Shown here piece after piece: positions 1 to 17,937 of a stretch of 64,000 nucleotides of DNA. How positions within the stretch are numbered: position 1 is the first letter of the stretch; each line of letters begins with the position of its first letter. The DNA lies in assembly GCA_035651055.1 (NCBI GenBank), contig DASRGK010000107.1, positions 2,524 through 66,523 on the forward strand, read 5' to 3'. Below the pieces are notes generated by a model. The model did no database searches, was not told the origin of the DNA, and saw nothing but the letters and a program-made list of their open reading frames with translations. The translations under genes and the position numbers were made by a program. This DNA comes from Bauldia sp. Lineage in GTDB: Bacteria > Pseudomonadota > Alphaproteobacteria > Rhizobiales > Kaistiaceae.

Positions 1-1071
1 CTCAAAGCAGGTCTCCCAGATGGTCTTGCCGCTGACCGTCGGCGCGTCCTTGTGGAGAAGCCCCGCCTCGCCGAGCGCCTTCAGCACCACCGGCAGACCG
101 CCGGCATAGTAGAACTGCTCCATCAGGAAGCGTCCGGACGGCATCAGGTCGACGATGGTCGGCACGCTGCGGCCGATCCGGTCCCAGTCGTCGAGGTCGA
201 CCGGCACGCCGATGCGGCCGGCGAGCGCCAGCAGGTGGATGACGGCGTTGGTCGAGCCGCCGACGGCGGCATTGACCCGGATCGCGTTCTCGAAGTTCTC
301 CCGGGTCAGGATCTTCGACATGACGAGGTCCTCATGGACCATGTCGACGATCCGCCGGCCGGCAAGCTGGGCGAGCACCATGCGGCGGGAATCGACCGCC
401 GGGATCGCGGCATTGCCGGGCATGCCCATGCCGAGGCTTTCCACCATCGAGGCCATGGTCGAAGCGGTGCCCATGGTCATGCAATGGCCGGGGGAACGCG
501 CCATCGCCGCTTCCGAATCGAGGAAGTCGGACAGCGACATCCTCCCGGCCTTCACGTCCTCGCTGAAGCGCCAGATGTCGGTGCCCGAACCGATTTCCTG
601 CCCGCGGAACTGGCCGTTCAGCATCGGGCCGCCGGAAACCGCGATCGCCGGAATATCGCAGCTTGCCGCGCCCATCAGCAGGGCCGGCGTGGTCTTGTCG
701 CAGCCGACGAGCAGGATGACACCGTCGATGGGATTGCCGCGGATCGATTCCTCAACATCCATGCTGACGAGGTTGCGGAAGAGCATGGCGGTCGGGCGGA
801 GGTTGGACTCGCCCAGCGACATCACCGGGAATTCCAGCGGGAAGCCGCCGGCCTCCAGCACGCCGCGCTTCACGCGCTCGGCGATCTGCCGGAAATGGGC
901 GTTGCAGGGGGTCAACTCCGACCAGGTGTTGCAGATGCCGATGACCGGGCGGCCGTCGAAGGAATCCGCCGGCATTCCTTCGTTTTTCATCCAGCTCCGG
1001 TGCATCATGGAATCGCGGTCGTTGCCGCCGAACCAGGCCTGCGAACGAAGCTGCCTGCCGTTTTTCGCCAT
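1..1071 (-). CDS. IlvD/Edd-family dehydratase (sugar-acid or dihydroxy-acid dehydratase); C-terminal part lies beyond the left edge
   Basis: Reverse-strand translation from ATG (cat at 1069-1071) reads MAKNGRQLRSQAWFGGNDRDSMMHRSWMKNEGMP...VGCDKTTPALLMGAASCDIPAI...SPGHCMTMGTASTMASM...AAVGGSTNAVIHLLALAGR. I recognise these blocks from IlvD/Edd dehydratases. The frame stays open to base 1. It is absent from the supplied track because no stop lies in the window. Confidence 0.85.
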   Translation of the reverse strand, partial: MAKNGRQLRSQAWFGGNDRDSMMHRSWMKNEGMPADSFDGRPVIGICNTWSELTPCNAHFRQIAERVKRGVLEAGGFPLEFPVMSLGESNLRPTAMLFRNLVSMDVEESIRGNPIDGVILLVGCDKTTPALLMGAASCDIPAIAVSGGPMLNGQFRGQEIGSGTDIWRFSEDVKAGRMSLSDFLDSEAAMARSPGHCMTMGTASTMASMVESLGMGMPGNAAIPAVDSRRMVLAQLAGRRIVDMVHEDLVMSKILTRENFENAIRVNAAVGGSTNAVIHLLALAGRIGVPVDLDDWDRIGRSVPTIVDLMPSGRFLMEQFYYAGGLPVVLKALGEAGLLHKDAPTVSGKTIWETCFE

Positions 1072-1246
1072 AACGCCCTGCCCCGCCTTGCCTGTTTTCC
1101 CGAGCAGACCATTCCTGCCCGAGGCGCGCAATGGGCGGGCTGACGCGGAAGCCACGCGGGAATGCGGCGCGGGGCCCATCGCGAGGAACAACCTCAACCG
1201 CATGGCGTTGACGGCGAGGTTTCACCCAAAAGACGGGAGACATTCC

Positions 1247-1747
1247 GTGGCCAAGACCCCGAAGACGCTTGACGAGCTGTTTCACGACACGCTGAAGGAC
1301 ATCTACTTCGCCGAGAAGAAGATCCTGGCGACGCTGCCCAAGATGGCGAAGGCGGCCCAGAACGCGGATCTCAAGGCGGCCTTCGCCGAGCACCGCGAAC
1401 AGACCGAGGGACACGTCGAGCGCCTCGAAAAGGTGTTCGGCATGATCGACAAGAAGCCGCAGGGCAAGACCTGCGCCGCGATCCTCGGCATCACCGACGA
1501 GGGCGCCGAGATCATGGAGGAATATGAGGGCTCGCCGGCGCTCGACGCCGGCCTGATCGCGGCGGCGCAGGCGGTCGAGCACTACGAGATTTCGCGCTAC
1601 GGGACCTTGCGCACCTGGGCCGAGGAAATGGGCCTCGACGACGCCGCGGAACTCCTTCAGGAGACGCTGGACGAGGAAGAGGCGACGGACGAGAAGCTGA
1701 CCGAGATCGCGGAGGACGTGGTCAACCAGGAGGCGGAGGCCGCCTGA
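1247..1747 (+). CDS. Ferritin-like DUF892 protein (YciE/YciF-like)
   Basis: GTG at 1247 is preceded by GGGAGA (1235-1240). The product VAKTPKTLDELFHDTLKDIYFAEKKIL...AQAVEHYEISRYGTL resembles the YciE/YciF four-helix ferritin-like family. Track ORF 155..1747 is an artefactual upstream extension of the same frame. Confidence 0.75.
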   Translation: MAKTPKTLDELFHDTLKDIYFAEKKILATLPKMAKAAQNADLKAAFAEHREQTEGHVERLEKVFGMIDKKPQGKTCAAILGITDEGAEIMEEYEGSPALDAGLIAAAQAVEHYEISRYGTLRTWAEEMGLDDAAELLQETLDEEEATDEKLTEIAEDVVNQEAEAA

Positions 1748-1791
1748 GCGACCGCTTACCCGCACGGGAGCGGGTGTAGTAGACGGAGGCA

Positions 1792-3471
1792 ATGCCCCGG
1801 CTCAACGCCACCGAAGTCGCCGGACTCCTCACCGAATTGAGCCGCCGGTCGGCACTGGCCGGCGGCAATCCCTATCGCGCCCGCGCCTATGCCCGCGCCG
1901 CCGACGCGATCGGCACGATCGGAACCTCGCTCGACGAGGTGATCGCCGCCGGCAGGCTGCGCTCGATCGAGGGGATCGGCGACACGATCGCCGACATCGT
2001 CACGCAGCTGCATGAGACCGGCACCCACCCGACGCTCGAAAAGCTTCGCCGGGACGTGCCGGCGAGCGTCCTCGAAATGCTGACGGTTCCGGGGTTGCGG
2101 CCGGACAAAGTGACGATGCTTTATCGCGACCTTGGCATCCGCTCCCTGGCGGAGCTGGAAGCGGCGGCGCGCGCCGACAGGCTGAAGCGCGTGAAGGGGA
2201 TCGGCGCCGCGCTGCAGGCGAAGATCATCGAGGGCATCGCGGTGCGCGAGGAAGCCGGCAATGCCCGGCACATGAACCGCGCCGCCGACCTCATTGCCGC
2301 CGCGCAACGCGACCTCGAACGGTCTGACTACCGCCCGAGCCGGGTCACGCCGGCGGGCGATTTCCGGCGTTCAAGCGAGCTGGTCCGGGACATTTCCTTC
2401 GTCGTCGAGTTGCCGGAACATGCCGGGCCGCCAGAGACGCTCGCGGCCGGCGGCCTCACCGTCACGCTGACCGATCCGGCGCATGCGGGAGCCGCGCTGC
2501 TCATGGCGACCGGCTCCGCGGAGCACCTCGCCGAACTCCGCCGGCTCGCCGGGGCGAAGAACATGGAGCTGCGGCCGGAAGGCCTCGTGCGCGGAACCAA
2601 GGTGGTGGCGGCGGCAAGCGAAGCGGACATCTACCGGGCGCTCGGCCTCGACTTCATCCCGCCGGAACTGCGCGAGGGACGCGGCGAGATCGAGCTGGCG
2701 GGCCGGCACAGGTTACCGGTCCTGGTGGAGGAGAACGACCTCCGCGGCATCCTCCATGCCCACACCGTCGCCTCGGACGGGGTCAACACGCTGGAGGAAA
2801 TGGCCGACGCTACGCTCGCGCGCGGCTACCAGTATTTCGGCATTGCCGACCATTCGCGCTCCGCCTTCTACGCCGGCGGGCTCAGCCTCGAAGAGATCGC
2901 CGAACAGCAGGCGGAGGTCGCCCGGCTCAACCGGAAATACGGCCGGCGATTTCACGTCTTCCACGGGATCGAGTCGGACATCCTCGTCGACGGCGCGCTC
3001 GACTATCCGGACGATGTCCTCGCCGGCTTCGACTTCGTCGTGGCGAGCGTCCACAGCCGGTTCAAGCTGGACGAGAAGAAGCAGACCGAACGGATTCTGG
3101 CCGCGGTCCGCCATCCGGCGACGACGATTCTCGGACACATGACCGGGCGCCAGCTGCTCCGCCGCGCCGGCTACGACATCGATGTCGAGGCGGTGCTCGC
3201 CGCCTGCGCCGAGCACGGCGTTGCGGTCGAGATCAACGGCAATCCGTGGCGGCTCGACCTCGACTGGCGCTGGCACCGGCGGGGCCTTGAACTCGGCTGC
3301 ATGTTCAGCATCAACCCGGACGCGCATTCGATTGCCGAGATCGACCTGACCCACTGGGGCCTGCTGATCGCGCGGAAAGGCGGCATCCCGAAGGAGCACG
3401 TGCTGAACTGCCTGAGCCGGGCCGAAATCGAGGCCTTCTTCAGGAAACGCCGCCAGCGCTGGCAGCGCTGA
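1792..3471 (+). CDS. polX: Family X DNA polymerase with C-terminal PHP phosphoesterase domain (PolX)
   Basis: 559 aa. Helix-hairpin-helix blocks (IEGIGDTIADIV, VKGIGAALQAKI) are followed by PHP-type histidine motifs (LHAHTVASDG, IADHS, ASVHS, INPDAHS). GGAGG sits 5 nt upstream of the ATG. Confidence 0.85.
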   Translation: MPRLNATEVAGLLTELSRRSALAGGNPYRARAYARAADAIGTIGTSLDEVIAAGRLRSIEGIGDTIADIVTQLHETGTHPTLEKLRRDVPASVLEMLTVPGLRPDKVTMLYRDLGIRSLAELEAAARADRLKRVKGIGAALQAKIIEGIAVREEAGNARHMNRAADLIAAAQRDLERSDYRPSRVTPAGDFRRSSELVRDISFVVELPEHAGPPETLAAGGLTVTLTDPAHAGAALLMATGSAEHLAELRRLAGAKNMELRPEGLVRGTKVVAAASEADIYRALGLDFIPPELREGRGEIELAGRHRLPVLVEENDLRGILHAHTVASDGVNTLEEMADATLARGYQYFGIADHSRSAFYAGGLSLEEIAEQQAEVARLNRKYGRRFHVFHGIESDILVDGALDYPDDVLAGFDFVVASVHSRFKLDEKKQTERILAAVRHPATTILGHMTGRQLLRRAGYDIDVEAVLAACAEHGVAVEINGNPWRLDLDWRWHRRGLELGCMFSINPDAHSIAEIDLTHWGLLIARKGGIPKEHVLNCLSRAEIEAFFRKRRQRWQR

Positions 3472-3475
3472 AACG

Positions 3476-4738
3476 TCAAAAGAAGGTGTGGACGGCGTCG
3501 ACGACGTTGTAGTCGTCGTCGATGACCGGGATGAGGCGCCATTTGTCGAAGGCGGTGCAGGGATGCGAGATGCCGCAGCCGACGAGATCGCCGACCGCCA
3601 GCGGATCTTCGGCGGACAGGCGGATGAAGGCGTGCTGGTCGTTGAGGCCGGTGACTGTCATCGCGCCGCGGGCACTCCGCCGCTCCCTGCCGTTCCACAC
3701 CTCGGTCGGCACCGGATAGCCCGCGTCGAAGGGCACGTCGCGGCGGCCGAGGCAGAGAAGCGCCAGTTCCGGCTCCGGACGCGACAGGACCACGCCCCAA
3801 GCCTCCAGCGCCGGACGAAGGCGGTCGGCGCCGCCCCGATGCGAGCCCATCGGCGAGGACGCGTCGTAGATGCCGTCATCGTGGGTGAGGTAGCAGCCGC
3901 TGCGGAGGACCAGGCGGATGGGGAGTCCGCCGTAGTTTCCGCCGAGATGTTTCACCACCAGGTCGAAGGCTTCGCTGCCGCCGGCGGTGACCAGGAATTC
4001 GCCGTCGCCGCCGATTTCACCGCGCCCGGCCAGCGTTTCGACGAGGCGGCGAAGCTCTTCGAGGAAGCGCTCGATCGGCGGGCCGTCGTGGAGAATCCCT
4101 TCGAAGCACTCGACGCCGGCGAACCGCAGGGCGGATGACGCGAGCACGGCCTTCGCGACATCGAGCGCGCCCTCGACCGTTCGCGCGCCGGTGCGGCCGC
4201 CGCGGACGCCGAGTTCGACGAGGACGGGAATGGGCCGGCCGCGCGGGCGGCCGGCGAGCGCCTTCTCCATCCGCGCGACCGAAGCTGACGAGTCGACCAG
4301 ACAATACGCCTCGAACTTCGCGTCGCGGTCGAGTTCGCCGGCGAGCCAGCGGATCGAATTCGGTTCGACCAGCTGGTTGGCGAGGATGATCCGCTCGATG
4401 CCGAAGGCGCGATAGACGCGCATCTGGCTCGGCGTCGCCGCCGTCATCGCCCAAGCGCCCGCCCCGAGCTGGCGCGCAAACAGTTCAGGGCTCATCGTCG
4501 TCTTGCCGTGCGGCGCCAGCCGGACGCCATGCGCCTCGCACCAGCGCCGCATCAGGGCGAGATTGTGCGCGAGCGCGCTTTCCTTGAGGACGAGGGCGGG
4601 AAGAAACAGGTCGCCCGCGAGCAGATTCCAGCGTTTCCCGGCGACGCTGGCCGGAGTGACGCCTTCGGCCGGCGGGAACCCCTTGTAGCGCCAGTCGATC
4701 GGATCGTCGCGCAGGCGCTGAAGCATCTCGGGCCGCAT
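3476..4738 (-). CDS. PLP-dependent alanine-racemase-fold enzyme of the D-serine dehydratase / D-threonine aldolase (DSD1-like) family
   Basis: 420 aa. It has LAPHGKTTMSPEL (candidate PLP lysine) and the C-terminal block GCGISHPCTAFDKWRLIPVIDDDY typical of this family. It is last in a minus-strand string with 4801..5592 and 5594..5830. Confidence 0.7.
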   Translation of the reverse strand: MRPEMLQRLRDDPIDWRYKGFPPAEGVTPASVAGKRWNLLAGDLFLPALVLKESALAHNLALMRRWCEAHGVRLAPHGKTTMSPELFARQLGAGAWAMTAATPSQMRVYRAFGIERIILANQLVEPNSIRWLAGELDRDAKFEAYCLVDSSASVARMEKALAGRPRGRPIPVLVELGVRGGRTGARTVEGALDVAKAVLASSALRFAGVECFEGILHDGPPIERFLEELRRLVETLAGRGEIGGDGEFLVTAGGSEAFDLVVKHLGGNYGGLPIRLVLRSGCYLTHDDGIYDASSPMGSHRGGADRLRPALEAWGVVLSRPEPELALLCLGRRDVPFDAGYPVPTEVWNGRERRSARGAMTVTGLNDQHAFIRLSAEDPLAVGDLVGCGISHPCTAFDKWRLIPVIDDDYNVVDAVHTFF

Positions 4739-4800
4739 CGGCTACCTCCGGCAGGGCTCCCCGGACTTATCACGGCGCAATCGCCAATGAAAAAGCCCGA

Positions 4801-5592
4801 TCATCCCCCCGGAACGACGGGCGGCGCGACGAGACGATTGACCTTGGCCGAGGCTTCCATCTGAACGAGGTGGCCGGCCCTCGGAATCACCTCGACCGGC
4901 GCGCCGCCACCGTCGCCGGGCGGCGGCAGGATGCGGTCCTCGGCGCCCCAGATGATCCGCGGCGGTGCGGCGAGAGCGGTGATTTCGGCGCGGAGCGGAA
5001 AGAACGAATCGCCCGAGGCGAGGTTTGCGGCGACCGTTTCAAGCGCTGCGCTCACACCGGCGCGGCCGACGAAGGCGAGCGTGTCGGTGACCATCTGGTC
5101 GCTGATGAGCCGCGGATTGGCGACGAGGAGGGAGAGAACGCTCCGCGCTTCGGCGGGGTCGCGGAGATGCGGGAAGCGCGCGATGAAGGTGCGGTTAATC
5201 GGCGGGCCGAATCCGATCGGAGCGATCAGGGTGAGGCTGATCACCCGCTGGGGCCGCCGGCCGGCAAGCCGGGTCGCGATCGCGCCGCCCAGCGAATGGC
5301 CGACGAGATGGAAGCGGTCCGTCCCCGCGGCATCGAGCCAGGCCTCGACCTGGTCGGCGAAGAAGGCGACGGTTCCCGGTCCGACGTCGACGCCGGAGAG
5401 TCCGTGGCCGGGGAGGTCGAGGGCAAGGATGCGGCCGCGCTCGACAAAATGCGGCAGCGTCATCCTCCAGGTAGTGTGGTCGGCGCCGAAGCCGTGGACG
5501 AAGACGTAGAGGGCCTCGCCGGAGCCGCCGGAGACGTAGTGGATGCGGCGGCCGAGCACGCTTGCCGCCGCCGCGGAGACCGTGCCCGCCAT
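4801..5592 (-). CDS. Alpha/beta-fold hydrolase resembling the C-terminal half of AcoC-type E2 proteins
   Basis: The ATG at 5592 lies 1 nt after the stop of the lipoyl protein. The 263-aa product has HGFGADHTTW and the nucleophile elbow LVGHSLGG. The longer track ORF (to 5760) overlaps the lipoyl gene out of frame. Confidence 0.75.
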   Translation of the reverse strand: MAGTVSAAAASVLGRRIHYVSGGSGEALYVFVHGFGADHTTWRMTLPHFVERGRILALDLPGHGLSGVDVGPGTVAFFADQVEAWLDAAGTDRFHLVGHSLGGAIATRLAGRRPQRVISLTLIAPIGFGPPINRTFIARFPHLRDPAEARSVLSLLVANPRLISDQMVTDTLAFVGRAGVSAALETVAANLASGDSFFPLRAEITALAAPPRIIWGAEDRILPPPGDGGGAPVEVIPRAGHLVQMEASAKVNRLVAPPVVPGG

Positions 5593-5593
5593 C

Positions 5594-5830
5594 TCAGCTT
5601 TCGGCGATCTCGGCGAGCAGCGCCCCCACCTCGACAATGTCGTCGACCGCGACGTGCCGCGCCGACAGGGTCCCGGCCACCGGCGCCTCGACCTCGAGGT
5701 TGAGCTTCGGGGTGCCGACGACCACGACCGGCTCACCGGCCGAAACCACGTCGCCGACATTCTTCAGCCATTCGACGATCACGCCCTCGGTGATCTCGGT
5801 GCCGAGCGAGGGGACAACCAGTTTCACCAT
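5594..5830 (-). CDS. Stand-alone biotin/lipoyl-attachment domain protein (78 aa)
   Basis: MVKLVVPSLGTEITEGVIVEWLKNVGDVVSAGEPVVVVGTPKLNLEVEAPVAGTL has the flattened beta-barrel lipoyl-domain pattern, with the candidate lysine in GTPKLNLEVEAP. Confidence 0.75.
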   Translation of the reverse strand: MVKLVVPSLGTEITEGVIVEWLKNVGDVVSAGEPVVVVGTPKLNLEVEAPVAGTLSARHVAVDDIVEVGALLAEIAES

Positions 5831-5887
5831 CCGATCAATCCTCGCGGCCTATCTGTGGTGCCGATCCACGCGACCCTCTATCCGCTT

Positions 5888-5915
5888 ACTTTTGTCTATG
5901 CTAATGAACAAAAGT
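5888..5915. promoter_or_regulatory. Inverted repeat ACTTTTGT-N12-ACAAAAGT in the divergent promoter region
   Basis: Perfect 8-bp arms at 5888-5895 and 5908-5915, AT-rich against the GC-rich background. It lies between the lipoyl gene start (5830) and the E1 start (5966). Confidence 0.35.
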
Positions 5916-5965
5916 CCGCAAGCCCGTTCTCCGACAGGGCGGGTCCGGGCAGGCGCGAGAAGGAC

Positions 5966-8428
5966 ATGCCGAAGGAACTCGTGATCGATCCGGGCGCGAT
6001 GCGGAAACGAGGCGAGATCGCCTTCGCGGGCATTCCGGTCAAACACTATGACACGCCGTTTGCGGAAGAGCGCCGGCAGCGCGGCGACGCCGGGCTCCTG
6101 AATGTGTTCCGCCACATGCTCATCGTCCGCGAGTTCGAGACGATGCTGGGCGAGTTCAAGGCGCGCGGGGCCTATTCCGGCATCGCCTGTGTCTACAAGG
6201 GGCCGGCGCATCTTTCGCTCGGGCAGGAAGGCGCGGCGGTCGGAGCCGCGCTCGCGCTCGAACCGGAAGACCATATTTTCGGCAGTCACCGCAGCCACGG
6301 CGAGTTCATCGCGAAGGGCCTCTCGGCGATCGGCCGCCTCGACCCGGCGGCGCTGACCGCGATCATGGAGACCCACGACGGCGGCAGGCTGCTCTCCGCC
6401 GTCGACCGGATGAAGCCGAAGGACGAGCGCGCCCGCGCCGAATCGTTCCTGCTCCTCGGGCTGCTGGCCGAGATTTTCATGCGCGCGACCGGCTTCAACG
6501 GCGGCATGGGCGGCAGCATGCATGCCTTTTTCCCGCCCTTCGGCGCCTATCCCAACAACGCCATCGTCGGCGCGTCCGCCGGAATCGCCGCCGGTGCCGC
6601 GCTCTACAAGAAGCTGCACGCGCCCGGTTCGGTCACCGTGGCTTTCACCGGCGACGGATCGACCGGCTCCGGCCCGGTCTTCGAGGCGATGAACTTCGCC
6701 GCGATGGCGCAGTACAACCGGCTTTGGCCGGAGCCGTTCAAGGGCGGGCTGCCGGTCCTTTTCTTCTTCGTCAACAATTTCTACGCCATGGGCGGCCAGA
6801 CCATCGGCGAGACGATGGGCTGGGACCGGCTCGCCCGCATCGGCGCCGCGGTCAACCCGGCGAACATGCATGCCGAGACGGTGGACGGCGCCAACCCGCT
6901 TGCCGTCGCCGAAGCCGTCGGGCGGAAGCGCGCCTTGCTCACCGGCGGTCAGGGCCCGGCGCTCCTCGACGTCGAGGTCTACCGCTCGGCCGGCCACTCG
7001 ACCACCGACGCCAACGTTTACCGGAGCCGCGAGGAAATGCAGGCCTGGGCGGCGCATGATCCGATCGTTCTTTTCGCCGCGGAGCTACGGAATGGCGGCC
7101 TCCTTGACCAGGCGGGCGAAGATGCGATGCGCGCCGAGGTCGCCGGGCTGATCCGGACGGTGACCGCGGCGGCGGTCGACCCGGCGGTGTCGCCGGTCAT
7201 TGACGTCGCCTCCGACCCGACCCTCATCGGCCGCCTCATGTTCTCGAACCGCGAGCGTGACGAGGACGGCAAGGCGACACGCCTCAGTGCCGCGCCGGAG
7301 ACCTCAGCGCAGGTGCGACAGCTGGCCAAGAAGAGCCGCACCGGCCGGACGGATGCCGGCGAGAAGCTCTCGCCGATGCGGGCGATCACGGTCCGGGACG
7401 GCCTGTTCGAGGCGCTCCTCGACCGGTTCGCCCGCGACGACAAGCTCATCGCCTACGGTGAGGAGTGCCGGGAATGGGGCGGCGCCTTTGGCGTCTATCG
7501 CGGCCTTGCCGAGGTCCTCCCCTATCACCGCCTCTTCAACGCGCCGATCTCGGAGGCGGCAATCGTCGCCTCCGCGGTCGGCTATGCGATCGAGGGCGGC
7601 CGCGCTGTCGTCGAGCTGATGTATGCCGACTTCATCGGCCGCGCCGGCGACGAGATCTTCAACCAGCTCGCCAAATGGCAGGCGATGTCGGCGGGAGCGC
7701 TGAAGCTGCCGGTGGTGCTGCGCTGTTCGGTCGGCAGCAAGTACGGCGCCCAGCACTCGCAGGACTGGACCGGCCTTATCGCCCACATTCCCGGATTGAA
7801 GCTGGTCTATCCGGCGACGCCCTATGACGCGAAGGGCCTCCTCGCCGCCGCGCTGACCAGTGACGACCCGGTGGTCTTCTTCGAGAGCCAGCGGCTTTAC
7901 GACACGACCGAGATGTTCCGGCCGGGCGGCGTGCCGGTGGAGCCGTATCGCATCCCGATTGGCGAGCCTGACATCAAGCGGGCGGGCGGCGATGTGACGA
8001 TCCTCACCGTCGGTCCTTCCCTCTATTCCGCCATCGCAGCGGCCGAGCAGATCGAGCGCGACCGCCGGATCTCCGTCGAGGTGATCGACGCGCGTTCGCT
8101 GGTTCCCTTCAACTACGACATCGTGCTGGAATCGGTGAAAAAGACGGGCCGTATCCTCCTCGTCTCGGAGGCGAGCGAGCGCGGCAGCTTCCTGATGACG
8201 CTCGCCGCCAATATCGCGCGCTTTGCCTTCGCCGACCTCAAGGTCGCTCCGCGCGTCCTCGGCTCGCCCAACTGGATCGTCCCCGGGGCCGACATGGAAT
8301 CGACCTATTTCCCGCAGGTCGCCGATATCGTCGATATTGTCTGCGGAGAGCTTCTCGAGGACCGGTCGTTCAATCGCCGCGGCATTCGTGCCTGGGACGA
8401 TCGCGACCTGGCCCGCCGGGGACTCTGA
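5966..8428 (+). CDS. Fused E1 alpha+beta component of a thiamine-diphosphate 2-oxoacid/acetoin dehydrogenase
   Basis: The ATG at 5966 gives 820 aa. The alpha part carries GSHRSHGEFIAKG and the TPP motif GDGSTGSGPVFEAMNFAAMAQ...FFFVNNFYAMG. After a charged linker the beta part starts near MRAITVRDGLFEAL and continues with YGEECREWGGAFGVYRGL and a C-terminal transketolase-like domain. The track ORF start at 5543 is an upstream artefact. Confidence 0.85.
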   Translation: MPKELVIDPGAMRKRGEIAFAGIPVKHYDTPFAEERRQRGDAGLLNVFRHMLIVREFETMLGEFKARGAYSGIACVYKGPAHLSLGQEGAAVGAALALEPEDHIFGSHRSHGEFIAKGLSAIGRLDPAALTAIMETHDGGRLLSAVDRMKPKDERARAESFLLLGLLAEIFMRATGFNGGMGGSMHAFFPPFGAYPNNAIVGASAGIAAGAALYKKLHAPGSVTVAFTGDGSTGSGPVFEAMNFAAMAQYNRLWPEPFKGGLPVLFFFVNNFYAMGGQTIGETMGWDRLARIGAAVNPANMHAETVDGANPLAVAEAVGRKRALLTGGQGPALLDVEVYRSAGHSTTDANVYRSREEMQAWAAHDPIVLFAAELRNGGLLDQAGEDAMRAEVAGLIRTVTAAAVDPAVSPVIDVASDPTLIGRLMFSNRERDEDGKATRLSAAPETSAQVRQLAKKSRTGRTDAGEKLSPMRAITVRDGLFEALLDRFARDDKLIAYGEECREWGGAFGVYRGLAEVLPYHRLFNAPISEAAIVASAVGYAIEGGRAVVELMYADFIGRAGDEIFNQLAKWQAMSAGALKLPVVLRCSVGSKYGAQHSQDWTGLIAHIPGLKLVYPATPYDAKGLLAAALTSDDPVVFFESQRLYDTTEMFRPGGVPVEPYRIPIGEPDIKRAGGDVTILTVGPSLYSAIAAAEQIERDRRISVEVIDARSLVPFNYDIVLESVKKTGRILLVSEASERGSFLMTLAANIARFAFADLKVAPRVLGSPNWIVPGADMESTYFPQVADIVDIVCGELLEDRSFNRRGIRAWDDRDLARRGL

Positions 8429-8453
8429 CCGATTTGGCCGGGGGGAAGGCCAG

Positions 8454-9458
8454 ATGGCGCGATTGAGGCGGAGCGGCGGACAATCGGCTGCCTCGGAGGA
8501 CAGTTCGCTCCGCATCCGCGCGGCCTGGCTCTACTACAACCAGGGCCTGACCCAGAAGCAGGTCTCGGAGCGCCTCGGGATCAGCCGCGGCACCGCGATC
8601 CGCGTCCTCGGCGAGGCGCTCGAACGCGGCGACGTCCAGATCTGGATCAACGAGAACGAGGCCGAGTGCGCCGAACTGGCAGTCCGGCTCGAAACCGCCT
8701 TTTCGCTCGACGAGGCGGTCGTCGTTCCTTCGCCGGGCGGCGAAGCCGCCTCGAAGGCAGTAGGTCTCGCCCTGGGCAAGCTGCTTTCCGAAGCAGTGAC
8801 CGACAACATGACCATCGGCGTCGGCTGGGGCCGCACGCTGACGGCGTCGCTGGCAAGTCTCCGGCCGGTCCGCCGCGACGGGGTCAAGGTCGTCTCGCTC
8901 CTCGGCGGTGTCGTCGAGGCCCGCGGCAGCAATCCGCTCGAATATAGCTGGCGGATGGCCAGCCAGTTCGGTGCCGACTGCTATTTGTTCATCGCCCCGG
9001 CCTTCGTCGATTCGGTCGCGACCAAACGGCGGCTGATCGAGAAATGCGGCCTCGACAAACTCTACGCCCTGGCGCAGAAGCTTGACCTCGCCGTGGTCTC
9101 GGCCGGCGACATCAACCTGCGCTCGACGTCGCTCGCCGCCGGCCTGCTCGCCCCCGGAGAACTGGAGGAGCTGGTGGAGCTTGGCGCCGTCTGTGACGTG
9201 CTCTGCAACTTCCTCGACGACGAGGGCAAAAGCGTCCCGCACGCCCTCAACCGGCGCGCGATGAGCGTCGAGCTCGACGACCTGCGAAACGCCCGGCACG
9301 TCGTCATCGCCACCGGCGGCGCCCACCGCGTCGCGGCAATCCGCGCCGCGATCAGGCGGATCGGCTGCAACACGCTCGTCACCGACGAGGCGGCCGCCCG
9401 CGGGCTGCTTGCCGGCGAGTCCGGCCGGCGGCCGGCGGCCCGGACTTTCTCGGACTAG
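8454..9458 (+). CDS. SorC/DeoR-type sugar-binding transcriptional regulator
   Basis: The ATG at 8454 follows GGGGGAAGG. The HTH LTQKQVSERLGISRGTAIRVL is followed by a SorC-type sugar-phosphate-binding domain (IGVGWGRTL...VVSLLGG...HVVIATGGAHRVAAIRAAI). Confidence 0.8.
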   Translation: MARLRRSGGQSAASEDSSLRIRAAWLYYNQGLTQKQVSERLGISRGTAIRVLGEALERGDVQIWINENEAECAELAVRLETAFSLDEAVVVPSPGGEAASKAVGLALGKLLSEAVTDNMTIGVGWGRTLTASLASLRPVRRDGVKVVSLLGGVVEARGSNPLEYSWRMASQFGADCYLFIAPAFVDSVATKRRLIEKCGLDKLYALAQKLDLAVVSAGDINLRSTSLAAGLLAPGELEELVELGAVCDVLCNFLDDEGKSVPHALNRRAMSVELDDLRNARHVVIATGGAHRVAAIRAAIRRIGCNTLVTDEAAARGLLAGESGRRPAARTFSD

Positions 9459-9463
9459 CGCGA

Positions 9464-10927
9464 ATGTTCCTCGGCATCGATATCGGGACCACGGCGGTCA
9501 AGGCGATCATCGTCGACGGCGACCAGCAACTTGTCGCCGCCGCGACCCGCGAGCATCCGACGGCGCGGCCGCAGCCCGGCTGGAGCGAGCAGAATCCGGA
9601 CGACTGGCTGGCCGCCGTCCGCGGCGCGCTCGTCGAACTGCGCACGGCTGCGGCGAACGCTTACGCCGCCATCGAGGCAATCGGGCTTTCCGGTCAGATG
9701 CATTCGGCGGTGCTTCTCGGCGCCGACCTCCGCCCGGTCATGCCCGCGCTTCTGTGGAACGACAGCCGCGGGACCGACGAGTGCGCCGAACTGACCCGGC
9801 GCGCACCCGGGCTCGCCGCGGTCACCGGCGTCCAGGCGATGGCCGGATTCAGCGCGGCGAAGCTGCTTTGGCTCGGCAAGCACCGCGCCGCGGATTTTGC
9901 CCGGATCGCCCATGTGATGCTGGCCAAGGACTATGTCCGCCTGTGGCTGACCGGCGAAATCGGTTCCGACATGTCGGACGCCGCCGGCACCCAGCTCTTC
10001 GACGAGGCAAACCGCAAATGGTGGCCGGACGCGGTCGCCGCGGTCGGGCTTCGCGACGGCCACATGCCGCCGCTCCACGAAGGACCGGAGGTTGCCGGGC
10101 GGCTGCGGGCCGAGCTGGCCGCCGAACTCGGACTCACCGCCGGCCTGCCGGTGGCAGCCGGCGGCGGCGATGCCGGGACCGGTTCGCTCGGCGTCGGCTG
10201 CATCGCGCGCGGCGAGGGCTTCGTCTCGCTCGGCACCGCGGCGGTCTTCGTCGTCGCCGACGACCGTTACGCACCCAGGCCCGAGACGATGCTGCACAAC
10301 TTCGCGCATTGCCTGCCGCGGCGCTGGTACCAGATGGCCGGCATGCTGAACGGCGCCAGCGTCGTCCGCTGGGCGCTCGACATCATCGGGGAGACCGACA
10401 TTGCTGGGCTGATGCGGAAGGTCGAAGCGCGCTACCGCGGCCCCTCGCACGTCCTCTTCCTGCCTTACCTGACCGGCGAGCGGACGCCGCACAACAATCC
10501 CGACGCGCGCGGCGTCTTCTACGGCCTCGCGGCCGGGACCGACAAGGTCGACCTGATGCAGGCCGTGCTGGAGGGCGTCGCCTTCTCGCTGAAGGATGCG
10601 CGGAACTGTCTGATCGCAGCCGGCGCCGATTGCCCGCGACCGGGGTTCCTCGGCGGCGGATCGCGCAACCGCCTTTGGGGGCAGATCATCGCCAGCGTGA
10701 CCGGACTGACCCTGATCCCCTACCGCGGCGCCGAGTTCGGACCGGCGCTGGGCGCCGCGCGGCTGGCTATCATGGCAGCGACGAATGCCGGTATCGAGGA
10801 GGTCGGCCGCAAGCCCGAGGAAGGCGAGCCGATCGCGCCCGACATGGCGATGCACGAGCTTTATGCACCACAATACGAGCGCTATCGCGAACTCTACCGG
10901 TCGGTGGCGCCGCTCTTCCAGGGATAG
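9464..10927 (+). CDS. xylB: FGGY-family carbohydrate kinase, xylulokinase-like
   Basis: 487 aa: MFLGIDIGTTAVKAIIV...GWSEQNPDDWL...LSGQMHSAVLL...LPYLTGERTPHNNP...GGGSRNRLWGQI. This is the typical XylB/FGGY pattern. Confidence 0.8.
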   Translation: MFLGIDIGTTAVKAIIVDGDQQLVAAATREHPTARPQPGWSEQNPDDWLAAVRGALVELRTAAANAYAAIEAIGLSGQMHSAVLLGADLRPVMPALLWNDSRGTDECAELTRRAPGLAAVTGVQAMAGFSAAKLLWLGKHRAADFARIAHVMLAKDYVRLWLTGEIGSDMSDAAGTQLFDEANRKWWPDAVAAVGLRDGHMPPLHEGPEVAGRLRAELAAELGLTAGLPVAAGGGDAGTGSLGVGCIARGEGFVSLGTAAVFVVADDRYAPRPETMLHNFAHCLPRRWYQMAGMLNGASVVRWALDIIGETDIAGLMRKVEARYRGPSHVLFLPYLTGERTPHNNPDARGVFYGLAAGTDKVDLMQAVLEGVAFSLKDARNCLIAAGADCPRPGFLGGGSRNRLWGQIIASVTGLTLIPYRGAEFGPALGAARLAIMAATNAGIEEVGRKPEEGEPIAPDMAMHELYAPQYERYRELYRSVAPLFQG

Positions 10928-10961
10928 GCAACGTCGCGGCGCCGCGGCGAACAGGCCGGGG

Positions 10962-11954
10962 CTATGCCGTTTCGTTCACCACCAGTTCCACGTCGAGGCG
11001 CACAACCGCCTCGTCGATGTCCTCGCCGCTGGTCAGCGCCACCGCCATCTCTGCGGAGCGCTTACCGGCCTCCCGCCGCGGCAGTGCAACGTAAGTGAGC
11101 GGCACGGGCAGGTACTGGCCGAGTTCGACCTCACCGACGCCGACGACGGCGACATCGTCGGGGATGCGGCGGCCGAGTTTCAGGAGGCGCAGAATGACCG
11201 CAGCCGTCCAGATCTCGCCGCCGACGACGAGCCCGTCGAACTGCCTGCCCGAGGCGAGCAGGCGCTCGAGCCCGTTGAGGCCGTCATCGATCGAATGCTC
11301 GACTTCGGCGCAGAGCGCATCGTCCGGCCTGAGCCTCGCTTCCTGCATGGCCTGCCGGTAGCCGTTGAGACGGTCGCGGGCATTCGAGGTCGTCCGCACG
11401 TGGCCGCAGATGATCGCAATCCGCCGCCGGCCGATTTCGATCAGACGGCGGGTCGCGAGGTAACCTGCCTCGTGGTCGGAATGGCCGACGGCGAAGTGGA
11501 TCGGCGAGGCGGGCAGATTGCCCACTTCGATCAGCGGAACCGGGAGGGATTCGAGGAGCTTCCTCGTCTTCGGCGTATGGCCGATGGACGGCAGAAGGAT
11601 CGCCTGGACGCGCTGCGACAGGAGCGAGCCGAGCGCATAGGGCTCGCGGGCGCGGGCGTAGTCGATCGTCTGCAGGATGTAGTCGTAGCGGTGGCTCTCG
11701 AAGACCAGACGCGCCGCGTCGACAAAGCCGAGATAGATCGAGTCCTGCAGGGTCGGCAGGATGATGCCGAAGGCGCGCGAGCGTTGCGAGGCGAGGCTCG
11801 ATGCGGCCTTGTTGTGATAGTAGCCCATCTCCGCCGCGACCGAGAGAATCCGGTCGCGCGTCTCTTTCCGGATCGAAGCGGATTCCAGGAAGGCGCGGGA
11901 GACCGTCATCTGCGAAAAGCCGCTTCGCCGCGCGACATCGTCCATGGTCGGCAT
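10962..11954 (-). CDS. LacI-family transcriptional regulator (LacI-1)
   Basis: The internal ATG at 11954 gives MPTMDDVARRSGFSQMTVSRAF (LacI HTH) followed by a periplasmic-binding-fold domain. The ATG at 11945 is an alternative start. Confidence 0.85.
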   Translation of the reverse strand: MPTMDDVARRSGFSQMTVSRAFLESASIRKETRDRILSVAAEMGYYHNKAASSLASQRSRAFGIILPTLQDSIYLGFVDAARLVFESHRYDYILQTIDYARAREPYALGSLLSQRVQAILLPSIGHTPKTRKLLESLPVPLIEVGNLPASPIHFAVGHSDHEAGYLATRRLIEIGRRRIAIICGHVRTTSNARDRLNGYRQAMQEARLRPDDALCAEVEHSIDDGLNGLERLLASGRQFDGLVVGGEIWTAAVILRLLKLGRRIPDDVAVVGVGEVELGQYLPVPLTYVALPRREAGKRSAEMAVALTSGEDIDEAVVRLDVELVVNETA

Positions 11955-12062
11955 CGGGCGCGCTTCCCAAGGGGCGCGCGACTCAATGCCTTTGGTGCCT
12001 GACCGGCTCGTTGCGGATTTGGCCATGCGGAGATCAGGGCGTCCGGCCATGCGGACGCGGCA

Positions 12063-15380: not shown

Positions 15381-16894
15381 GCGGACCGGCGATCCTCACG
15401 CTTGCCGCAATCGCGAAGGCGTTCGCCGGCATCCATGCCGTGCGCGACGTATCGCTGGCCGTCGGCCGCGGCCGGATTCTCGGCCTCGTCGGCGAGAACG
15501 GCGCCGGTAAGAGCACGCTGATGAACATCATCGGCGGCGTGGTCCGGCCGGATGGCGGCACGATGCTTCTGGACGGCGCGCCCTATGCGCCGGCAAGCCC
15601 CGGCGAGGCCAGCCGGGCCGGCATCGCCTTCATCCACCAGGAGCTCAACCTCTTTAGCAACCTGACCATTGCCGAGAACATCTTCCTCAACGATTTTCCG
15701 CAGCGGCGCTTTGGCCCGTTCTCACTCATCGACAGAGCCGCGGTCGCCCGGCAAGCCCGCGCCCTCCTCTCCGAGGTCAGCCTCGACCTGCCGCCCGAGA
15801 CACCCCTCGACCGGCTTTCGCCGGGCGAGCGCCAGCTGGTCGAAGTCGCCCGCGCCCTCCGGCTCGACGCCCGTATCATCATCTTCGACGAGCCGACGAC
15901 GTCGCTGACCGCGCGCGAGACCGAGCGGCTGTTCGCGCTGGTCGCGCGCCTGCGCGAAGCCGGCAAGTCGGTGATCTACATTTCCCATATCCTCACCGAC
16001 GTGGCGGCGCTCGCCGACGACATCGCCGTGCTCCGCGACGGCGCGCTGATCGAAGCCGGCGCCAAGGCGCAGTTCCCGATCGCCCGCATGATCACACTGA
16101 TGGTCGGACGCCCGATCGACCAGCTTTATCCGCCGCGCAAGTCAGCGCCGCAGGCCGCGGTCCTGCTCGAAGCCATCAGCCTCGGCGCGACCGGCATCAT
16201 CAGGGACGTGAGTTTCGCGCTCCATCGCGGCGAAGTGCTCGGCATCTTCGGATTGATGGGCGCCGGGCGCACCGAACTCGCCCGCATCCTCTTCGGCCTC
16301 GACAGTCACGAGACCGGCGAAATCCGCGTCGAGGGCCGCCGGCTGCCGGCGCGCTCGGCGCGCGCCAGCATCCGCAGCGGCATCGCCTTCATCACCGAGA
16401 ACCGGCGCGAAGAAGGCCTCCTGATGAACGGCACGGTTGCCGAGAACATCGCCCTCGCCGCGCTGCCCAGGCTCGCCATCACCCCGGCCGAGCTGATCGA
16501 GCAGGGCCGCATCCGGAGCGCCGCCGGGGCGCTCGCCGAGGCGCTCAACATCAAGACGGCGTCGCTCGACGCGCCGGCCAAGAGCTTGTCGGGCGGCAAC
16601 CAGCAGAAGGTCGTCCTGGCGAAATGGCTGCTCTGCCGGCCCTCGGTCTTCATCATGGACGAGCCGACGCGCGGCATCGACGTGGGCGCCAAATACGAGA
16701 TCTACTCGATCATCGACCGGCTCGCCGGGGCCGGCGGCGGCGTGCTTTTCATCTCCTCGGAACTGGAGGAACTGCTGGCGGTCTGCGACCGCATCCTGGT
16801 GATGAGCCGAGGCGAGATCGTCGGCGAATTCGCTAGAGCCGGCTTCGACCGCGGGCGCGTGCTGGCTGCGGCCTTTCGCGAGGCGGCCGCATGA
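15377..16894 (+). CDS. ABC sugar transporter ATP-binding protein, duplicated NBD
   Basis: The ATG at 15377 overlaps the preceding stop (ATGA). Walker A is GENGAGKST, the signature is LSPGERQ, and a second NBD carries LSGGNQQK. 505 aa. Confidence 0.9.
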   Translation: MSGPAILTLAAIAKAFAGIHAVRDVSLAVGRGRILGLVGENGAGKSTLMNIIGGVVRPDGGTMLLDGAPYAPASPGEASRAGIAFIHQELNLFSNLTIAENIFLNDFPQRRFGPFSLIDRAAVARQARALLSEVSLDLPPETPLDRLSPGERQLVEVARALRLDARIIIFDEPTTSLTARETERLFALVARLREAGKSVIYISHILTDVAALADDIAVLRDGALIEAGAKAQFPIARMITLMVGRPIDQLYPPRKSAPQAAVLLEAISLGATGIIRDVSFALHRGEVLGIFGLMGAGRTELARILFGLDSHETGEIRVEGRRLPARSARASIRSGIAFITENRREEGLLMNGTVAENIALAALPRLAITPAELIEQGRIRSAAGALAEALNIKTASLDAPAKSLSGGNQQKVVLAKWLLCRPSVFIMDEPTRGIDVGAKYEIYSIIDRLAGAGGGVLFISSELEELLAVCDRILVMSRGEIVGEFARAGFDRGRVLAAAFREAAA

Positions 16895-17937
16895 ACCGCG
16901 CCCTCTACGACCGCGTCAGCGGCTACCTCCTCCGCCATGCGGCGGCGATCATCTTCATCGTCGTCTTCGTCTATTTCGGGCTCGCCGCCGACAATTTCCT
17001 CAGCGCCGAGAACTCGCTCAACATCATCAAGCAGGCTTCGTTCACCGGCGTCATCGCCGTCGGCATGACCTTCGTCCTGCTCACCGCCGGAATCGACCTC
17101 TCGGTCGGCTCCAACATGTACGTGTCCGCCATGACCGTCGGCTATCTCCTGCAGATACCCGGCCTGCAGGGCGGTTTCGGCGTCCTTGCCGGGATCGTCG
17201 CCGGCCTCGCCACCGGCGCGCTTTTCGGCGCGATCAACGCCGCCTGCATCGTCTATCTCAGGATCACGCCGTTCCTGGTGACGCTTGCCACCATGGTCGC
17301 AGGCCACGGGCTGGTGACCGCGATCACCCAGTCCTTCGGCCTCGACTATCCGGCGGCGTTCACGTCCTTCGGCGCGGCCTCGATCCTCGGCATACCGATT
17401 CCGGTGGCGATCTTCGCCGCCGTGGTCGCCGCGGCCCATATCGTGCTGACGCGCACGCCCTTCGGCCGCCAGCTCTATGCGGTCGGCAACGATGCCGAGG
17501 CGGCGCGCAAGGCCGGCATCGCGACCGACCGGATCATCTTCTCGGTCTATGTGATCTCCGGACTCTGCGCGGCGCTCGGCGGGGTGACGCTGATCGCGCT
17601 GGTCGGGCGCCTCAACCAGACATTCGGCGTCGGCAAGGAATTCGACGTGATTACTGCGGCAGTGCTCGGCGGAACCAGCCTCTTCGGCGGCGTCGGCACC
17701 GCCTTCGGCGCAGTCATTGGCTCGGTTCTCGTCCAGATGGTCCAGGCCGGCATGGTCTTCGTGAAGGTCAACCTCTACCTGCAGCCGATGGTGCTGGCGG
17801 CGGTGATCTTCATCGCCGTCTTCTTCGACAGCCTGCGCGGCGCGCGGCTGGAGAAACTGAAGCGCCGATTCATCCGCATGGACGCGCCGAACGAGCCGGG
17901 CGCTTCCGCCGGCAAGGAAATCGCCAACCCACCATGA
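16891..17937 (+). CDS. ABC sugar permease (ribose-type, second)
   Basis: 348 aa. The ATGA overlap with the ATPase stop suggests coupling. Blocks: GIDLSVGSNMY and GGTSLFGGVGT. Confidence 0.85.
   Translation: MNRALYDRVSGYLLRHAAAIIFIVVFVYFGLAADNFLSAENSLNIIKQASFTGVIAVGMTFVLLTAGIDLSVGSNMYVSAMTVGYLLQIPGLQGGFGVLAGIVAGLATGALFGAINAACIVYLRITPFLVTLATMVAGHGLVTAITQSFGLDYPAAFTSFGAASILGIPIPVAIFAAVVAAAHIVLTRTPFGRQLYAVGNDAEAARKAGIATDRIIFSVYVISGLCAALGGVTLIALVGRLNQTFGVGKEFDVITAAVLGGTSLFGGVGTAFGAVIGSVLVQMVQAGMVFVKVNLYLQPMVLAAVIFIAVFFDSLRGARLEKLKRRFIRMDAPNEPGASAGKEIANPP

Follow-up and report, generated by a model that had tools for sequence, protein, structure and literature searches.

A fused E1 with a free lipoyl carrier and an AcoC-type alpha/beta-fold protein in Bauldia sp., a widespread variant of the acetoin and 2-oxoacid dehydrogenase systems

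A 64,000 nucleotide (nt) stretch of DNA from Bauldia sp. (assembly GCA_035651055.1, contig DASRGK010000107.1, positions 2,524 to 66,523; hereafter the window) encodes a variant of the acetoin and 2-oxoacid dehydrogenase systems. In brief, the alpha and beta subunits of E1 are fused, and the two parts of the acetoin protein AcoC, a lipoyl carrier and an alpha/beta hydrolase, are encoded by separate genes. This variant is widespread, and a genetic phenotype has been published for one of its orthologues. We consider it probable, though by no means settled, that positions 4801-10927 form a SorC-controlled module for oxidative C-C cleavage with thiamine diphosphate and lipoate, and that the module belongs to a distinct and widespread family. 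Judged from the sequence comparisons, the split layout is a conserved trait of this family and not the product of a decayed acetoin operon. The minimal conserved unit consists of E1, carrier, hydrolase and SorC with a candidate operator, plus interchangeable PfkB or FGGY kinases. The features specific to the window, a relocated, divergent carrier-hydrolase pair and a neighbouring gene for a pyridoxal phosphate (PLP) enzyme, are minor.

The window comes from a soil metagenome-assembled genome (MAG) of 3.2 Mb in 156 contigs that is 95% complete. The contig carrying it is 72 kb long, and the GC content of the window is about 68%. An earlier note, made from the letters of this DNA alone, had listed the open reading frames (ORFs) discussed below, and all of them are present where it had placed them.

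The fused E1 (5966-8428, + strand) is a protein of 820 amino acids (aa), predicted to be thiamine diphosphate dependent. Three Pfam domains, E1_dh, Transket_pyr and Transketolase_C, lie in a single frame, as expected from the alpha-beta fusion that the note had described. The sequence contains a GDG...NN cofactor motif, a YR-x-x-GHS loop and an insertion of approximately 50 residues in the alpha half. By Pfam and sequence the protein therefore has both parts of a thiamine diphosphate E1, the alpha-type cofactor motif and the beta-type transketolase-like half. Among solved structures, it is matched only at the level of E1 subunits of pyruvate dehydrogenase (PDH) and branched-chain 2-oxoacid dehydrogenase (BCKDH), with 143-196 bits for the beta half and 44-99 bits for the alpha half.

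Thousands of full-length relatives, 817-843 aa long, were found for the fused E1, and the matches listed at the top are 68-82% identical to it; their sources include Bauldia, Kaistia, Pelagibacterium, Aureimonas, Methylobrevis and Roseiarcus. In a survey using one genome per species, full-length fused orthologues were confirmed in at least 566 species genomes, with 53-73% identity over the whole length. These relatives span Alpha- and Gammaproteobacteria, Clostridia, Planctomycetota, Verrucomicrobiota and Sumerlaeota. Taken over all the matches listed, full-length orthologues are 53-82% identical to the E1 of the window. By the E1 matches and the tree, the named relatives closest to the window are Bauldia (Kaistiaceae) and other Hyphomicrobiales.

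A quick maximum-likelihood tree (IQ-TREE) was built from 30 rows of the fused family, AcoAB from five loci with an intact AcoC and the E1 paralogues of the own genome. The fused family forms a clade with a support of 100 in the Shimodaira-Hasegawa-like approximate likelihood ratio test (SH-aLRT), on a very long branch. Classical AcoAB, the PDH-type E1 of the own genome (contig C8) and two further E1 paralogues (C16, C19) are found on the other side of the tree. Compared with the aco operons of five genomes, the window E1 is 30-34% identical to classical AcoAB in the alpha half and 35-42% in the beta half. Membership of the window E1 in AcoAB is not supported by these sequence data. Within the fused family, the E1s of Clostridia, Planctomycetota and Sumerlaeota form a subclade with 100% support, and they are 51-56% identical over the full length. 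The loci of this subclade encode a canonical E2 (lipoyl domain, peripheral subunit-binding domain and catalytic domain), and 7 of the 9 also encode an E3 and one an LplA. Their neighbours are DeoR regulators, Zn- and mannitol-type dehydrogenases, class II aldolases and a KpsF-like isomerase.

Three further observations on E1 genes were made. Contig C16 of the own genome (locus L025:6029-8449, - strand) encodes a second fused E1 of 806 aa with a C-terminal lipoyl domain (E1_dh, Transket_pyr, Transketolase_C and Biotin_lipoyl). It adjoins genes for a D-2-hydroxyacid dehydrogenase and a sugar ABC transporter, and no E2 core was found among the ORFs scanned there. In a genome of the same family (L119, G016:C6), the alpha and beta halves of E1 (59% and 62% identity) are two pieces with coordinates overlapping by 29 nt, which points either to genes that are truly separate or to a frameshift; nearby genes encode a carrier, a hydrolase and a PfkB kinase. 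The E1 genes of a Limisphaerales MAG (L082) and a Flavobacteriales MAG (L072) nest within alphaproteobacterial clades, beside Ahrensia and Puniceispirillaceae. This placement could be due to horizontal transfer or to a binning error.

Two genes on the - strand, divergent from E1, correspond to the parts of AcoC. The gene at 5594-5830 encodes a free-standing lipoyl carrier of 78 aa (Pfam Biotin_lipoyl, E 4.9e-17). The gene at 4801-5592 encodes an AcoC-type alpha/beta-fold protein of 263 aa, here called the hydrolase, presumed to be an S-acyl-dihydrolipoyl:CoA acyltransferase in the place of an E2 core. The stop codon of the carrier and the ATG of the hydrolase are separated by 1 nt. The NCBIfam AcoC model NF011457 has 372 positions and a cut-off of 307 bits for an intact AcoC. 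The hydrolase matches positions 113-366 with 231 bits and the carrier positions 5-79 with 58 bits, each ORF separately and below the cut-off, in line with the two-gene AcoC of the earlier note. No match to NF011457 above the cut-off, and hence no intact AcoC, was found anywhere in the own genome.

The residues expected of these two proteins are present. In the carrier, K42 is the presumed lipoyl-lysine and stands in a T-P-K context specific to the family. It aligns with the lysine of ETDK in classical AcoC, a motif replaced by TTPK in the carrier. All 72 carrier orthologues have T40 and K42, and 49 of them have P41. The carrier would in this way provide the lipoyl-lysine characteristic of 2-oxoacid dehydrogenase complexes. 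In the hydrolase, S100 (the nucleophile in HSLGG), D219 and H241 are each at least 90% conserved among 57 sequences, and they are the predicted Ser-Asp-His residues of the alpha/beta fold that makes up the C-terminal part of AcoC. The hydrolase is 36-46% identical to stand-alone orthologues and likewise to classical AcoC.

The neighbourhoods of 80 E1 loci were fetched and compared with the proteins of the window. Both a carrier and a hydrolase are present at 50 proteobacterial loci, without exception as separate ORFs, and they lie directly downstream of E1, approximately 2.5 kb (carrier) and 2.7 kb (hydrolase) from its start. The NCBI annotations of the finished plasmids pRL8 and pAt15955 also give carrier and hydrolase as two coding sequences. 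The usual gene order is E1, carrier, hydrolase, (kinase), SorC. In one genome of the same genus and two of the same family, E1, carrier, hydrolase and SorC are on one strand. The window deviates from this order in two respects: its carrier-hydrolase pair is divergent from E1, and the PLP gene follows this pair. SorC stands directly after E1 both in the window and at the locus of the closest E1 relative (L033). Proteobacterial loci recurrently hold SorC (28), PfkB kinases (36), short-chain dehydrogenases (26) and CUT1/CUT2 sugar ABC transporters. Many loci are bare four-gene operons of E1, carrier, hydrolase and SorC amid unrelated genes, without a kinase.

These comparisons bear on the possibility that the window holds a decaying acoC copy broken in two by a frameshift. 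The 1 nt spacing of stop and start may resemble a frameshift. We nevertheless rejected this explanation, to which we give practically no credence, on the grounds that all 50 related loci keep the two genes apart and both finished plasmids have them as two coding sequences. Further, both ORFs are intact with conserved catalytic and lysine residues, and the same sequence was recovered independently. The earlier note had taken the split to be atypical, and had named ordinary aco orthologues with an intact AcoC, with a frameshift at this locus, as the finding that would overturn it; the split is instead the conserved state of the related loci. A misassembled divergent junction was also considered and rejected. 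Positions 2513-6882 of the window are identical, with 0 differences, to a 4370 nt contig assembled independently from a soil metagenome run. This contig reaches from the PLP gene across hydrolase, carrier and intergenic region into the 5' part of E1, which rules out an assembly artefact at the divergent junction.

Among the ten ORFs scanned in positions 155-12050, we found no PF00198 E2 core and so no E2 with an E3-binding domain of the kind that canonical complexes have. The lipoamide dehydrogenase model gave no match on the contig of the window. Elsewhere in the own genome, TIGR01350 (E3) matched above its cut-off on contigs C8 (591 bits) and C120 (575 bits), so that an E3 is available outside the cluster and may be used by the module. 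The note was right that E2 core and E3 are missing nearby. It had counted the missing E3 among the atypical traits of the cluster, but this is the rule in split-type loci, all 48 of which lack both E2 core and E3 within 9 kb.

E1 is followed downstream by a regulator and a kinase; the earlier note had recognized both, and both do belong to the E1 module. The regulator is a SorC/DeoR-type sugar-binding transcriptional regulator (8454-9458, + strand; NF053881 DeoR 177 bits, LsrR 124 bits). Its ATG at 8454 lies 25 nt past the E1 stop and is preceded by a ribosome-binding site. It is 58-71% identical to the regulators of orthologous clusters. The kinase (9464-10927, + strand) starts 5 nt after SorC and is an FGGY-family protein, a xylulokinase paralogue (TIGR01312 XylB 479 bits, cut-off 380) presumed to be dedicated to the cluster. 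The junction of SorC with a 60% identical FGGY kinase is found in two relatives of the same family. An FGGY kinase is also part of the cluster of Bauldia litoralis ATCC 35022, a cultured strain, along with E1, carrier, hydrolase and SorC. A housekeeping xylulokinase was considered for this gene and rejected. A canonical xylA (TIGR02630, 677 bits) lies beside xylB on contig C109 of the own genome (45726-48493, locus L133), and the window kinase is only 45% identical to that XylB, which is why we regard it as a paralogue dedicated to the cluster. In other lineages, a PfkB kinase takes the kinase role at 36 of 81 loci, as judged by clustering.

The 135 nt intergenic region between the divergent units contains a perfect palindrome, ACTTTTGT-N12-ACAAAAGT (5888-5915, no strand). 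The form TTTGT-N12-ACAAA, here between divergent genes, recurs 5' of E1 in loci that carry SorC. A relaxed pattern, (A/T)TTG(T/C)-N8-16-(G/A)CAA(A/T), was searched within 250 nt upstream of E1 and was found at 19 of 32 loci encoding SorC versus 4 of 53 loci without it. The background for this pattern is 2-5% of 250 nt windows, and it occurs exactly once in the 64 kb window. The strict form, TTTTG(T/C)-N-ACAAAA, was found at 4 loci only. This distribution supports the palindrome as a candidate SorC operator that would control both divergent units.

The orthologue with a published phenotype is found on plasmid pRL8 of the pea symbiont Rhizobium leguminosarum (johnstonii) 3841. The E1 of the window is approximately 67.6% identical over the full length to the pRL8 E1, SorC 57.9%, the carrier 40.8% and the hydrolase 36.4%, and each of these is the best match in the genome. 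The quick tree places the pRL8 E1 in the sister clade of the window E1. Three locus-tag anchors, pRL80071 (homoserine dehydrogenase), pRL80081 ('putative hydrolase') and pRL80090 ('fucose operon protein'), fix the mapping and identify the pRL8 E1 as pRL80083. By sequence, the window module is orthologous to the pRL80079-83 operon. The annotation of pRL8 runs from SorC through carbohydrate kinase, hydrolase and lipoyl protein to the fused E1, with a sugar-phosphate isomerase and an ABC transporter encoded divergently from them.

The two clusters share the fused E1, a 78 aa lipoyl protein, a stand-alone alpha/beta hydrolase and SorC. They differ in that E1, carrier, hydrolase, PfkB kinase and SorC are on one strand in pRL8, whereas the carrier-hydrolase pair is divergent in the window, which also has an FGGY kinase in place of the PfkB kinase and an additional PLP gene. 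No orthologues of the PfkB kinase, the sugar-phosphate isomerase or the CUT2 transporter of pRL8 were found in the window. In the own genome, the best match to the PfkB kinase (pRL80080) is a 43% identical kinase beside UxuA on contig C56, the isomerase (pRL80084) has only a 28% match, and the CUT2 transporter (pRL80085-88) has generic paralogues only. The E1 and the carrier-hydrolase pair of Mesorhizobium sp. M8A.F.Ca.ET.218.01.1.1 (L044) are nearly identical to those of pRL8 (L113), with end branches of 0.008-0.06, and the two clusters are flanked by the same transporter genes. This suggests a recent horizontal transfer of the whole cluster.

Homoserine reportedly induces two divergent operons in Rhizobium, and a pRL80083 mutant is said to be unable to use homoserine as sole carbon source. 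The phenotype is on record for Rhizobium only, where the literature gives the operon as required for the catabolism of L-homoserine. The published work on this cluster is genetic, and the literature searched gave no enzymology for any member. The table of a review lists 'Homoserine catabolism, pRL80079-pRL80088, Vanderlinde et al. 2014' (Vanderlinde, Hynes and Yost 2014, Environ Microbiol 16:205, as cited in PMC8416774 and bioRxiv 10.1101/2021.02.09.430557). A further paper counts pRL80083 with the genes that carry out L-homoserine catabolism, and a preprint on insertion sequencing (INSeq) labels pRL80088 'ABC homoserine transporter'.

The following route is inferred throughout, from the single catalytic reactions to the shared E3 and the substrate. 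The fused E1 would form a thiamine-bound acyl-carbanion, either from a 2-oxoacid with loss of CO2 or from an acetoin-like ketol with release of an aldehyde. E1 would then reductively acylate the lipoyl-lysine K42 of the free 78 aa carrier. The Ser-Asp-His alpha/beta-fold protein would take the role of the E2 core and pass the acyl group to coenzyme A (CoA). The carrier would be reoxidised by the housekeeping lipoamide dehydrogenase (LpdA), encoded with the genes for PDH or 2-oxoglutarate dehydrogenase elsewhere in the genome. We suggest that SorC binds the TTTGT-N12-ACAAA palindrome between the divergent units and is probably released by a phosphorylated intermediate from the adjacent FGGY kinase.

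As substrate, we rank a sugar-derived phosphorylated ketol or 2-oxo-3-deoxy acid first, and a homoserine-derived 2-oxoacid (4-hydroxy-2-oxobutanoate or 2-oxobutanoate) second. A phosphorylated ketol or a 2-oxo-3-deoxy sugar acid is suggested by the sugar-type kinases, regulators, transporters and dehydrogenases found at these loci across phyla, and a homoserine-derived 2-oxoacid by the genetics in Rhizobium. Tentatively, as something possible rather than probable, we propose that the family is an undescribed lipoate-dependent system with a fused E1, a free, trans-acting carrier and an alpha/beta-fold acyltransferase in place of the E2 core. It would either oxidatively cleave a phosphorylated 1-deoxy or other ketol sugar (e.g. 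1-deoxy-xylulose 5-phosphate) to an acyl-CoA and an aldose phosphate, or oxidatively decarboxylate 4-hydroxy-2-oxobutanoate derived from homoserine to 3-hydroxypropionyl-CoA. The literature searched contained no biochemical study of a fused E1 that comes with a free lipoyl carrier and a hydrolase, and no lipoate-dependent step in homoserine, fucose or rhamnose catabolism.

Among the closest known systems is that for acetoin (AcoA/AcoB/AcoC, NF011457) in Cupriavidus necator and Pseudomonas putida. It combines a thiamine E1 with a lipoyl domain and, where an E2 core would stand, a Ser-His-Asp alpha/beta-fold acyltransferase, as presumed for the window too. Classical aco operons use the sigma-54 activator AcoR, and E3 is often not encoded in classical proteobacterial aco operons either. 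In contrast, the E1 of the window is fused and belongs to a separate, deep clade, AcoC is split into two proteins, the carrier has TTPK rather than ETDK, the regulator is SorC, and the gene context is of sugar type and not of butanediol type. Could the window nevertheless encode an ordinary acetoin or 2,3-butanediol AcoABC system with a cosmetic fusion and fission? The hydrolase and the carrier match the AcoC model, the hydrolase is as similar to classical AcoC as to its stand-alone orthologues, one classical aco locus (L122) also has a fused AcoAB, and Clostridioides difficile has aco-like operons with a DeoR/SorC-type regulator. We think this very unlikely, however, given the very long branches and low identities that set the E1 clade apart from AcoAB, the TTPK of the carrier and the recurrent neighbours, which are sugar kinases, SorC, sugar ABC transporters and polyol dehydrogenases. 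In addition, the sole genetic phenotype on record concerns homoserine. The view of the earlier note that the substrate is not that of textbook acetoin catabolism fits the E1 tree, the sugar-type neighbours and this phenotype.

The PDH and branched-chain complexes (PDB 1w85, 1um9, 1qs0) are the best solved relatives of both E1 halves, and have the cofactor motifs and the swinging-arm principle of the lipoyl domain in common with the window. Unlike the window, they have separate alpha and beta subunits, a lipoyl domain tethered to a multimeric E2 core and a dedicated or co-encoded E3; the alpha match is weak (61-99 bits), and the window family has its insertion in the alpha half. The E2-E3-fused-E1(-LplA) operons of the sister subclade are closer in that they have the same E1 family and sugar- or polyol-type neighbours, but they encode a canonical E2 and their own E3 where the window has a free carrier and a hydrolase. 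We predict that the hydrolase transfers the acyl group to CoA, since this sister subclade pairs its E1 with a standard CoA-dependent E2. The alternative is that the alpha/beta-fold protein is a thioesterase, releasing a free acid from the acyl-dihydrolipoyl carrier so that no CoA ester is made. In favour of this, its Ser-Asp-His triad is that of a classical hydrolase, the solved structures nearest to it are C-C and ester hydrolases, and no AcoC-type protein was found among the solved structures matched by sequence. Hydrolysis would, however, waste the thioester energy, and the canonical CoA-dependent E2 cores of the sister subclade make acyl-CoA the probable output of the family. We consider a thioesterase quite unlikely.

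The PLP gene (3476-4738, - strand) encodes a DSD1/D-serine-deaminase-like enzyme of 420 aa, with an N-terminal alanine-racemase-like barrel (PF01168 Ala_racemase_N) and a C-terminal D-ser_dehydrat domain (PF14031), the combination of DSD1 and D-threonine-aldolase-type enzymes. The nearest solved structure is 3gwq, 'D-serine deaminase' (276 bits, residues 19-420). The motifs HGKT and SHPC are visible, and would provide the PLP-lysine and an H-x-C metal site, respectively. At its other end, the gene converges with a PolX/PHP polymerase gene (1792-3471, + strand), with 4 nt between the stops.

The PLP enzyme might be a working part of the pathway, converting a D-hydroxy amino acid (D-serine, D-threonine or homoserine-like) to a 2-oxoacid, which E1, carrier and hydrolase would turn into an acyl-CoA. 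The gene lies 62 nt downstream of the hydrolase on the same strand and has a good ribosome-binding site. DSD1-type enzymes yield 2-oxoacids, according to family knowledge and the PDB relatives, and the literature links the Rhizobium orthologue to the amino-hydroxy acid homoserine. We regard this as unlikely. The PLP gene was found at none of the 80 related E1 loci and is also missing from the clusters of the closest relatives, and homologues in the same genus are 44-46% identical and unlinked, on other contigs. A weak terminator-like hairpin with a T-run (4800-4818, - strand) lies between the stop of the hydrolase and the start of the PLP gene, although it carries little weight, as 8 such sites were found in the region versus 4.4 expected. 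Finally, a role of the PLP enzyme would leave the SorC regulator and the sugar-type kinase unexplained. The PLP gene is most likely a local add-on, a neighbour specific to this lineage. The five-gene arrangement with the PLP enzyme, for which the earlier note had proposed a survey, is thus unique to the window. Overall, the parts list of that note and its regulator and kinase held up, its hint at a non-acetoin substrate fits the evidence, and the split and the lacking E3 as atypical traits, and the five-gene set, did not hold up.

Several points weigh against a SorC-controlled module for oxidative C-C cleavage as we describe it. The carrier-hydrolase pair of the window is the most divergent of the family, so that a partner swap may have occurred. 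Identity between the window carrier and its relatives is 41-53%, compared with 51-80% among those relatives; in the pair comparison the hydrolase is 37-42% identical to its relatives, and a branch with an SH-aLRT of 97 separates the pair from the other 56. Neither a closer relative nor a donor of the hydrolase turned up in 400 genomes of the order, where no match exceeded 46% identity and the best ones were mostly classical AcoC. Because the carrier retains the TPK hallmark, we lean, though not firmly, towards a relocation with subsequent fast evolution and away from a foreign pair as replacement. A phosphorylated inducer is not assured, since so many loci are four-gene operons without a kinase. 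The hydrolase might also cleave the thioester hydrolytically instead of transferring the acyl group to CoA. The link to homoserine comes from secondary citations, and the window does not have the PfkB kinase, isomerase and CUT2 transporter of pRL8; its substrate may therefore differ from that of Rhizobium.

It should be noted that a lipoyl synthase gene, lipA (16580-17551), directly adjoins the E1-carrier-hydrolase-SorC cluster on pAt15955 of Agrobacterium tumefaciens 15955 (L114). It is followed by a gene of the mannitol dehydrogenase family, a CUT1 transporter, xylB and a second SorC.

The combination of a fused E1, a free carrier and a predicted acyltransferase of the hydrolase fold is found in hundreds of soil and marine species, and databases name its genes only generically. 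The sole genetic handle is growth on homoserine, an amino acid of pea root exudate, which also affects the nodulation competitiveness of Rhizobium. If true, either reaction proposed here would close a biochemical gap in the homoserine catabolism of rhizobia or provide a new route leading from sugars to acyl-CoA. An E2 core that can be replaced in trans by two small proteins, as these genes suggest, would bear on the evolution of lipoate-dependent complexes.

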